64,000 nucleotides of DNA from an uncultured Lentisphaerota bacterium (lineage in GTDB: Bacteria > Verrucomicrobiota > Kiritimatiellia > CAIQIC01), in the NCBI GenBank assembly GCA_903889245.1, contig CAISWQ010000079.1, positions 876 through 64,875 of the forward strand, written 5' to 3'. The translations under genes and the position numbers were made by a program. The notes beneath the pieces are model-generated. The model was not told where the DNA came from. It searched no databases and was given only the letters and a program-made list of their open reading frames with translations. Shown here one piece after another: positions 46,410 to 46,831 of the stretch. How positions within the stretch are numbered: the stretch's first letter is position 1; every line of letters begins with the position of its first letter.

Positions 46410-46441
46410 GCTGACAGCGATCAGCTTGTCAGCGGTCAGCC

Positions 46442-46798
46442 ATGAAAGACTTTCGTAAGCTGGATGTCTGGCACAAGGCGCATCAACTCGCGGTGCAGAT
46501 TTATAAGGCTACCGAAAGTTTTCCAGCGGCGGAAATCTATGGCCTAACCAGTCAATTACGGCGCGCGGGAGTTTCCATTCCGACCAACCTGGCGGAAGGC
46601 TGCGGGCGAGCGACGGATGCTGACCTGGTTCGTTTCATCGTCATCGCGATGGGCTCGGCCAGCGAGGTGGAATACTTGATCCTGTTGGCGCGCGAGCTGG
46701 GACTGATAACGAAAGAAACAGGCGTTACTCTCGAAACCCAGATCATCGAGATAAAAAAGATGCTCGCTTCATTGATCAAAACTGTGCGAGCGGGCTGA
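46442..46798 (+). CDS. Four-helix-bundle protein (TIGR02436-like, the '23S rRNA intervening-sequence protein' family)
   Basis: MKDFRKLDVWHKAHQLAVQIYKATESFP...EIYGLTSQLRRAGVSIPTNLAEG is the family signature. GC is about 50%, far below background. Flanked by inverted repeats GTCAGCGGTCAGC (46426-46440) and GCTGACCGCTGA (46805-46816). Confidence 0.75.
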   Translation: MKDFRKLDVWHKAHQLAVQIYKATESFPAAEIYGLTSQLRRAGVSIPTNLAEGCGRATDADLVRFIVIAMGSASEVEYLILLARELGLITKETGVTLETQIIEIKKMLASLIKTVRAG

Positions 46799-46831
46799 TA
46801 GCTGACCGCTGAAAGCTGAGAGCTCTTATCC

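Follow-up and report, generated by a model that had tools for sequence, protein, structure and literature searches.

A four-helix-bundle gene between heptad arrays in the lemA-htpX spacer: a candidate intervening-sequence cassette in a protein-coding operon

How does a small gene of the 23S rRNA intervening-sequence protein family come to lie within a protein-coding operon, and what are the repeats that enclose it? The question is raised by a 64,000-nt stretch of contig CAISWQ010000079.1 from an uncultured Lentisphaerota bacterium (assembly GCA_903889245.1), which we call the window, where such a gene, here named 4HB for its four-helix-bundle product, occupies the spacer between lemA and an htpX-like protease gene. 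Open reading frames (ORFs) within intervening sequences (IVSs) of 23S rRNA are familiar, the Leptospira IVS being one case, and so are the heptamer simple-sequence repeats known in cyanobacteria as STRR. An earlier sequence-only reading of the window regarded 4HB as a low-GC gene inserted between its neighbours, whose flanking repeats hinted at a mobility mechanism shared with a second small gene in the window. We find instead that gene and repeats form a cassette that is an old resident of its lineage, with its protein under purifying selection, and we incline, by a small measure, to regard it as an IVS-type promoterless hairpin cassette that sits in an mRNA operon instead of in rRNA.

Anatomy of the cassette and its recurrence across the family

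The 4HB ORF (46442-46798, + strand) is 357 bp long and encodes 118 amino acids (aa). It begins 32 nt downstream of lemA (45855-46409, +; PF04011, 204 bits) and ends 33 nt upstream of the gene for an htpX-like M48 metalloprotease (46832-48091, +; PF01435, 117 bits), whose product scores 297 bits against the HtpX model NF003425, under the equivalog cut-off. The location first described, between lemA and an htpX-like protease gene, is thus borne out by the neighbours, all three genes lying on the + strand, and the family assignment stands as well: in profile searches the protein matches PF05635 (23S_rRNA_IVP) with 130.3 bits over residues 5-109 of 118 (E 3.9e-38; cut-off 33.8 bits) and TIGR02436, 'four helix bundle protein', with 127.1 bits against a cut-off of 24, which places it in the family. 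The solved pentameric four-helix bundle XCC0516 (PDB 2GSC) matches residues 4-116 with E 6.4e-22 and 2RLD is the second PDB match, so by homology to 2GSC/2RLD the window protein may form a homopentameric ring. There is also a remote match to phrog_3206, 'Avd protein of DGR' (diversity-generating retroelement), with E 7.9e-5, and close homologs of the window protein match the bAvd profile PF22296 below its cut-off. A motif GxxRxxxSxxxNxxE has been noted for XCC0516 homologs (PMC3936711); its core RxxxSxxxNxxE is found in the window protein as R41, S45, N49 and E52, invariant across a 30-sequence alignment, while the leading G is absent at the expected position. No homolog of 4HB was found in the phage collection searched, and the PADLOC defence-system families gave 0 matches to 4HB or to the GxxExxY protein described below. 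Possible roles of the protein are those of a factor binding RNA or repeats and, like Avd, of a partner to a reverse transcriptase.

What had been described as a flanking inverted repeat is not a single palindrome. It consists of two inverted tandem arrays whose 7-nt unit reads nnTCAGC before the ORF and GCTGAnn after it (consensus DDTCAGC / GCTGAHH); together with the ORF they fill the entire lemA-htpX spacer. The upstream arm (46410-46441, +; from the sequence and an inverted-repeat search) reads GCTGACAGC GATCAGC TTGTCAGC GGTCAGC C; the TAA stop of lemA abuts its first unit, TCAGC starts at 46421, 46429 and 46436, and the arm ends one base before the ATG of the ORF. The downstream arm (46793-46826, +; from the sequence, Tandem Repeats Finder (TRF) and exact pattern matches) reads G GCTGATA GCTGACC GCTGAAA GCTGAGA GCTC, with GCTGA starting at 46794, 46801, 46808 and 46815, and TRF reports period 7 and 4.4 copies at 46794-46824. 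The stop codon of the ORF, TGA at 46796-46798, belongs to the first downstream unit, and TGA recurs in all three frames; the htpX ATG follows 5 nt past the annotated end of the arm and 10 nt past the last GCTGAnn unit. The inverted-repeat search aligned 46429-46443 with 46798-46812 (15 nt, 93% complementary) and 46402-46426 with 46800-46824 (25 nt, 80%). The repeat of the sequence-only reading is therefore present, at coordinates that need correction: GTCAGCGGTCAGC lies at 46428-46440 and not 46426-46440, GCTGACCGCTGA at 46801-46812 and not 46805-46816. It is also specific to this place, as GCTGANNGCTGA has 4 exact copies in the 64 kb, all at the 4HB locus, against 0.19 expected and with 0 of 100 shuffles reaching 4, and no second GCTGA array exists in the window.

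In the minimum-free-energy RNA fold of 46400-46835, positions 46402-46441 pair with 46795-46826 (z -2.8), and when a short loop connects the two arms in a mini-hairpin, the folding energy is -41.5 kcal/mol (z -6.4). The predicted stem has about 30 bp, as helices of 5-6 bp broken at every seventh position, with the ORF in the loop, its ATG at the apex and its stop within the first downstream unit. An IVS is recognised by terminal inverted repeats whose pairing makes a long stem around an ORF lying in sense, and this is what the predicted fold and the co-oriented neighbours display. A scan for sigma-70 promoters and terminators gave no consensus in either spacer beside the ORF. An Rfam scan of 45800-47000 gave no match and nothing relevant in the cassette, and the window element is not in 23S rRNA.

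We then ask whether the architecture is peculiar to this locus. The family survey took one genome per species and comprised 80 loci (51-66% aa identity), in hosts of Chloroflexota, Planctomycetota, Verrucomicrobiota, Bacteroidota, Poribacteria, Acidobacteriota, one cyanobacterium and others. The best tandem lag was 7 in the upstream flank of 67 of 77 loci and in the downstream flank of 46 of 77, compared with 78 of 770 control windows. Identical 5-mers spaced exactly 7 nt apart occurred upstream in 61 of 76 loci and downstream in 63 of 76 (controls, 9.1% of windows), and on both sides in 53 of 76, for which the 9.1% of single windows serves as control with no paired one; chains of at least three such 5-mers stood on either side in 47 of 76 loci, against 0.8% of control windows. 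Complementarity between the upstream flank and the downstream flank exceeded the 99th control percentile, i.e. 1% by definition, in 34 of 77 loci. Within 120 nt of the ORF, the density of strict arrays was 35 times that over the rest of the same loci. Thus recurrence of the repeat at other copies, which had been proposed as a check, is found in generalised form around most family members. The unit varies by lineage (TCAGC, TTAGC, TCAGT, GAAGTCA, ACCGAAA and others) and both arms of a locus share one unit type; the arrays of the 53 two-sided loci are inverted in 34, direct in 6 and unclear in 13, and in 18 of the 33 loci whose downstream array is clear, that array begins within a few bases of the stop codon. 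Among 72 loci with both flanking genes called, by a crude longest-ORF rule, both neighbours are co-oriented with 4HB in 56 and both opposed in 3. Two other statistics were tried and set aside. The RNA duplex energy of 100-nt flanks gave no separation (mean -46.6 kcal/mol for loci, -44.9 for controls) because GC content dominates it, and was replaced by the lag and ungapped-complementarity statistics; strict lag-7 detection (12/14 matches) proved too strict, since the unit has two variable positions among its seven.

One group of copies deserves separate description. In the Anaerolineales loci L008, L010, L012, L015, L018, L021 and L032 the last bases of the array, just upstream of position 2501 or its equivalent, are GCTTATAAT; 6-7 nt separate them from the ATG, and they have the look of a -10 box from which a leaderless 4HB mRNA would start. 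At the same loci the 4HB stop overlaps or just precedes the ATG of a conserved gene whose product starts with a GSGFGGS motif and which we take to be GMC-oxidoreductase-like; this synteny holds in several Anaerolineales genomes.

Several of these observations weigh against the reading as an IVS-type hairpin cassette. The stem is interrupted every 7 nt, and at the 2-nt spacer positions complementarity within a locus is no higher than between loci (13 usable loci), so that what selection maintains seems to be the 5-nt cores and not an unbroken helix. Arrays are one-sided or direct (the 6 of 53 above) in some homologs, and others have a whole hairpin on one side; some copies in Anaerolineales seem to bring a -10 box with them; the co-orientation bias, apart from the crudeness of the gene calls, could come from selection after insertion and not from a need for read-through; and RNase III cleavage of the window stem, though probable, is argued by analogy. 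Since the spacer positions are not co-adapted and some arrays are one-sided or direct, recognition of the unit by a protein, possibly the pentameric 4HB itself, becomes a serious rival, in which the heptads would be binding sites in RNA or single-stranded DNA, the arrays by the gene would serve autoregulation, those farther off in the genome would be targets of the protein, and the hairpin would be a by-product of the symmetry with which the sites are arranged. This explanation draws on the single unit vocabulary of both arms (DDTCAGC), on the typical array of about 4 units (median 26-28 nt), on arrays found in the same loci at a distance from 4HB genes, as well as immediately before start codons, on the different units of different 4HB subfamilies, and on a paper that postulates an unknown post-transcriptional binder of TAACTGA repeats and never considered PF05635 (PMC4679880). 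It has to face the fact that units differ widely within one subfamily of 51-66% identity (TCAGC, TTAGC, ACCGAAA, CTGGTTA), that solo hairpins persist past loss of the ORF, and that the window protein is not notably basic, and on balance we consider it unlikely.

Age of the gene and turnover of the lemA-htpX spacer

The case for recent acquisition began from base composition. The ORF has a GC content of 0.535 against 0.659 for the window, close to the 50% and 67% first given, and its GC at third codon positions (GC3) is 0.62 against 0.92 in both neighbours; moreover, the closest relatives by lemA identity (L170-L175, 96% at the nucleotide level) are without the gene. However, orthologs of 74-85% aa identity lie at the same site, lemA - 4HB - M48, on the metagenome contigs L004/L005, L006, L007 and L089, again with low GC (GC3 0.50-0.68 against 0.75-0.96 in neighbour genes) and with the TCAGC/GCTGA arms of the window in 3 to more than 10 units per arm, so that relatives with the same gene at the same place and of like composition do exist, which the sequence-only reading had itself named as a refutation. 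The ratio of non-synonymous to synonymous substitution (dN/dS) between the window gene and these orthologs is 0.06-0.14, which indicates purifying selection. Over the 80 homologous loci, in hosts of 36-69% GC, ORF GC rises and falls with that of the host (r 0.90, slope 0.83), from which it differs in every case by 5-9 points on the low side; the constant offset makes low GC a trait of the family and not a sign of recent transfer. The exact window protein was found on 11 contigs, in the same context at all places listed, and its 90% protein cluster has one member. Divergence of 4HB and of LemA is not cleanly congruent, as the pair L006 and L089 comes closest in LemA (89% aa) and not in 4HB (78%), which is not decisive given 118 aa and saturated dS values of 1-2.5. 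With orthologs in place where lemA is only 77-91% identical, arms retained in relatives that lack the ORF, an equal GC offset in all hosts and purifying selection on the gene, the idea of a low-GC foreign gene recently inserted between lemA and htpX is already contradicted, and we give it next to no credence.

How the spacer changes is seen in relatives. The order zinc ribbon-LemA-M48 is conserved among 66 relatives with both lemA and M48, and the spacer between these two genes measures at most 40 nt in 52 of the 66, which confirms the earlier statement that LemA and HtpX genes are usually adjacent. The contigs whose LemA falls in the 90% identity cluster of the window are all without the ORF and all with a hairpin. 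In L088 the arms are joined at a 3-nt apex (...GATCAGC TTTCAGCC ATC GGCTGATA GCTGACC GCTGAAA...), and this solo hairpin folds at -38.9 kcal/mol (z -5.8). L168/L169 have a different junction, GGTCAG TAAG GGCTGA; the window and L168 are homologous until 30 nt into the spacer and again from 24 nt before the htpX ATG, and the upstream arm of the window is homologous to the left arm of the L168 solo hairpin. L176 retains a 7-codon remnant, ATGAGAGTTTCG..GCTGA, resembling the ORF start ATGAAAGACTTTCG. The three junctions are best read as at least three independent losses of the ORF that left the arms behind, and since lineages with lemA 77-91% identical keep the gene and arms are kept, as losses of the loop and not as empty target sites. 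The search for the empty site that had been suggested hence gives a divided answer: presence and absence of the ORF, and replacement of spacer alleles, are found in close relatives, and the ORF-less sites, with the arms left behind, are best not taken for pre-insertion sites.

Allele replacement is most evident in L170-L175. L170-L172 and L173-L175 are 99-100% identical over the final 300 nt of lemA and the initial 96 nt of M48, and L172/L173 and L170/L174 align over 3.6-3.7 kb with about 98% identity including the spacer difference, and still the spacers hold two different hairpins, one of period 7 (TGGWWRA / CCATCAN, 92 nt) and one of period 8 (TGGAGTRR / CTCCANNN, 143 nt), whose loops share GATGGGAAA..CCGGC..TCCGT. 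The flanking contexts are mosaic relative to the hairpin allele. Assembly artefacts were considered and rejected, because each allele occurs in three independent assemblies; recombination, insertion or a very rapid concerted evolution of the arrays may have produced the alleles. In the window itself a one-armed heptad array, GATGGTG x4.6, lies at 22749-22780, 7 nt past the stop of a 1489-aa ORF, and its unit type is the same as that of the left arm of the L170-L172 hairpin. Farther away, L096 (3097-3408) and L102 (3121-3429), with LemA identity of 63%, carry in the same lemA-M48 spacer a very divergent 4HB of 25-27% identity to that of the window, flanked by heptads of their own, TTTTTAG / CTAAAAA and GAGTTnT / AACTCAn.

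Such turnover invites an explanation at the DNA level, namely that the inverted arrays are transposon-like ends, each with several binding sites for a recombinase acting in trans, and the ORF-less hairpins resemble miniature inverted-repeat transposable elements (MITEs). The patchy presence at the site (a bare spacer in 52 of 66 lemA-M48 operons), the very divergent 4HB with different heptads at the same place in L096/L102, the two hairpins of the nearly identical L170-L175, the recurrence of one of their unit types at 22749-22780, and the copies inside rRNA and between cas genes (PMC3936711) would all fit. Against it stand the failure to find a near-identical second copy (the single-member cluster and the constant context at the places listed, noted above), the confinement of GCTGA arrays in the 64 kb to the 4HB locus, an ORF ameliorated to host GC, and the sense bias of 56 to 3, which DNA transposition by itself would not lead one to expect. 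Among the genes called up to 6 kb to either side there is no recombinase, and there are no phage matches. We judge a mobile element of this kind distinctly unlikely.

A second explanation makes the hairpin a host element, comparable to repetitive extragenic palindromic (REP) sequences, that sets how stable lemA and htpX mRNA are relative to each other and changes fast by slippage, with 4HB as an incidental passenger. Short-period hairpins of several unit types are indeed found at the same spacer, with or without an ORF, in the distant relatives L122, L125, L136 and L156; the spacer hairpins have no U-tract and so are not terminators, and copy number varies between strains. But this leaves unexplained why PF05635 genes are enclosed in the same way at sites that have nothing in common, in many phyla and inside rRNA, and why 52 of 66 operons lack any such spacer, and it appears highly improbable to us.

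The wider neighbourhood may be described briefly. Within 6 kb on each side the Pfam content comprises SLT, AP_endonuc_2, fucosidase, AraC, 4HBT_2, Zn-ribbon, LemA, M48, DUF433, DUF5615, DHOase and PATR, and one 58-aa gene has no Pfam match. A toxin-antitoxin-like DUF433/DUF5615 pair (48092-48736) lies between the M48 and dihydroorotase genes in the window, L170, L171 and L174; L168 and L176 are without the pair, and there the M48 and dihydroorotase genes abut.

The rRNA counterpart, known systems and the proposed mechanism

A direct link to rRNA is provided by the homolog on plasmid AZO_p2 of Azospirillum lipoferum 4B (L187, record 13501-15645), which lies inside a 23S rRNA gene (Rfam large-subunit match, 1527 bits). 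Its arms are heptads, CAGAGGA CGGATGA CAGAGGA CGGAGGA / TCCGTCC TCTGTCT TCTGTCA TCCGTCT, with a predicted stem of 25 bp (z -10). There is no obvious ATG near its 5' arm, and the homolog is missing from the gene table of the plasmid collection, which is incomplete. In Coxiella burnetii, three or four GACAGAT heptamers, in strain-dependent number, stand just before the start codon of S23p, the IVS stem contains them, and RNase III has been shown experimentally to cut at the first heptamer (PMC4990558). These two ORF-bearing IVSs (Coxiella S23p and Azospirillum L187) are like the window cassette in having a PF05635 ORF in sense orientation in the loop of a terminal-repeat stem, whose arms are tandem heptamers (GACAGAT in Coxiella, CAGAGGA/CGGATGA in Azospirillum) with a copy number that varies among Coxiella strains. 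They differ in lying in rRNA, where IVSs occupy helix 45 or 25, whereas the window cassette lies in a spacer of a protein-coding operon and has the unit TCAGC; in that RNase III excision is established for the Coxiella IVS (PMC4990558) and would be expected by analogy for the window cassette; and in that the window ORF is under purifying selection while the Coxiella ORF is described as decaying.

Annotated plasmids of cultured strains carry the cassette as well. In Nostoc punctiforme (pNPUN01, NPUN_RS33770) it stands between hypothetical genes with arms GTCAGGA x8 / TCCTGAC, and in Aulosira laxa likewise between hypothetical genes with GTCAGGA / TCCTGAC; in Nostoc edaphicum the genes on both sides, which lie on the opposite strand, are those of ribonucleotide reductase (GGGAGTA / TCCCTAC). 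Two copies are lodged between cas genes, namely in Anabaena sp. 90 pANA02 (L179, ANA_RS23230; between cas6 and cas4, GGTGACA / TGTCACC) and in Picosynechococcus PCC 7003 (L184, NZ_CP016476.1, 126543-126899; between cmr2 and cmr3, GGAGATAA / TCTCCTTA). The PF05635 family has been listed as CRISPR-associated (PMC3936711; PMC10910872), and lodging of the cassette between cas genes probably explains this listing. Caution is therefore advisable, since PF05635 genes scored as 'CRISPR-associated' may be cassettes between cas genes, as L179 and L184 look to be, and the association may then stem from insertion of the cassette and not from a role in CRISPR.

Other known systems resemble the cassette in part. 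PF05635 has been linked to Avd (PMC10053308), and Avd (bAvd, PF22296, phrog_3206) is a remote homolog in the same four-helix-bundle fold family; the window 4HB, however, scores with PF05635 and not with bAvd, and neither a reverse transcriptase nor a template/variable repeat pair is found within 6 kb on either side. TAACTGA heptamer repeats have been described in Beggiatoaceae, Cyanobacteria and Bacteroidetes, with S1, Csp or CsrA as candidate binders (PMC4679880). Like the window arrays they are intergenic, with 7-nt units in which a stop triplet closes every reading frame, many of them stop just short of a start codon without a Shine-Dalgarno sequence, and they vary in copy number and are patchy across phyla (PMC4679880); they are described, however, as direct repeats and without a linked gene, whereas the arrays of the window type are inverted pairs around one gene family. 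Integron cassettes, REP and bacterial interspersed mosaic elements (BIMEs) and MITEs offer an analogy only. They share the promoterless small ORF with an imperfect hairpin, in sense within a transcribed gene array, and the ORF-less hairpin derivatives in intergenic spacers, but for the window cassette we found neither an integrase nor an attC consensus, and no transposase, target-site duplication or family of identical copies in high number. Much of the background is already known, i.e. the PF05635 family, its occurrence outside rRNA, the Avd homology, the Coxiella IVS heptamers and the abundance of heptamer repeats in bacteria. In the literature we searched, where subscription journals are thinly covered, we found no paper that brings these items together or links PF05635 to a general heptad-armed cassette, a sense bias or solo-hairpin derivatives, and in the searchable literature heptamers beside PF05635 genes are reported only for Coxiella strains.

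Taking the IVS-type hairpin cassette as the preferred reading, a mechanism can be outlined. The cassette, apparently without a promoter of its own in this genome, would be transcribed by read-through together with lemA and htpX. Its arms would form a duplex cut by RNase III, as in the rRNA versions; by this cleavage the lemA message would be parted from that of htpX, and a 4HB mRNA would be set free whose leader is very short. The number of heptads, variable between strains, would tune the length of the stem or duplex. As the unit contains TGA or TAA, it places stops in all three frames and so insulates the cassette from upstream ribosomes, a property also noted for the TAACTGA repeats (PMC4679880).

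A second small-gene cassette and the meaning of the architecture

The second gene of the sequence-only reading, a GxxExxY/PD-(D/E)XK gene 21.2 kb from 4HB, is real (24829-25227, +; PF13366, E 4.8e-37) and does have flanking repeats. Its cassette (24788-25306, +) has a left arm at 24788-24823 and a right arm at 25271-25306, a 36-nt inverted repeat of 78% complementarity built of the 8-mers AGGAAAGC (TRF period 8). By inverted and direct repeats, ORF-less hairpins of the same type, each of about 75 nt, were found at 25226-25301 and 25377-25453, the second with 30-nt arms and a 17-nt loop, and the loops of both contain GGCGCAGCC. Among the only four homologs inspected, those of Bacteroides finegoldii (inverted arrays CACAGAGGA x3 / CCTCTGTG x3) and of Bernardetia lie between inverted arrays of 9-10 nt period with unrelated co-oriented neighbours. 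GxxExxY and 4HB are thus alike in standing between inverted short-period arrays, with ORF-less hairpins adjoining the former in the window, and different in protein fold, which is unrelated, and in unit period, 8-10 against 7. Of the trait said to unite the two families, the architecture of a short-period hairpin around an ORF is upheld in this small sample, and the shared mobility mechanism is not.

The window has further repeats. Just upstream of the GxxExxY cassette, at 24669-24781, there are four copies of the 19-nt palindrome TTTCCAAnnnTTGGAAA, spaced 31-32 nt apart. The non-coding stretches 17300-18000 and 22900-22990 contain the repeated palindromes GATACCTAGNNCTACTAGGTATC (17320, 17536, 22962), three copies of CTGRCGAGCGCRGCTAC and a heptad array, GTTCGAT x5.7, at 17825-17864. 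Another period-7 array, CCATCCG x4.3, lies at 48832-48861 inside a dihydroorotase-like coding region, where it encodes PSAIPHPPSA. The arrays at 17825-17864 and 48832-48861 are unrelated to small ORFs.

A bolder proposal, which we put forward as doubtful, is that PF05635 and the heptad-armed hairpins form one widespread system. In one variant the 4HB protein would be the trans-acting factor of heptamer repeats, a pentamer recognising repeats of the STRR and TAACTGA types in genomes of cyanobacteria, Bacteroidota, the Planctomycetes-Verrucomicrobia-Chlamydiae group and Chloroflexota. In the other variant the spread would be RNA-mediated, RNase III cutting out the hairpin RNA, which would then enter other transcripts or rRNA loops and become fixed through reverse transcription, the Avd-like protein acting as cofactor; this would directly explain the strong sense bias, the copies in rRNA and in cas operons, and the solo hairpins.

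The nature of the ORF and protein of 23S rRNA IVSs and the abundance of heptamer repeats in several phyla are puzzles of more than 30 years' standing that have been considered apart, and the present data join both. The IVS is one location of a general cassette, whose usual place is an ordinary operon, in sense orientation, and whose decay leaves solo hairpins. As the cassette occurs in culturable strains such as Picosynechococcus PCC 7003, Nostoc punctiforme and Anabaena sp. 90, its predictions are testable there.

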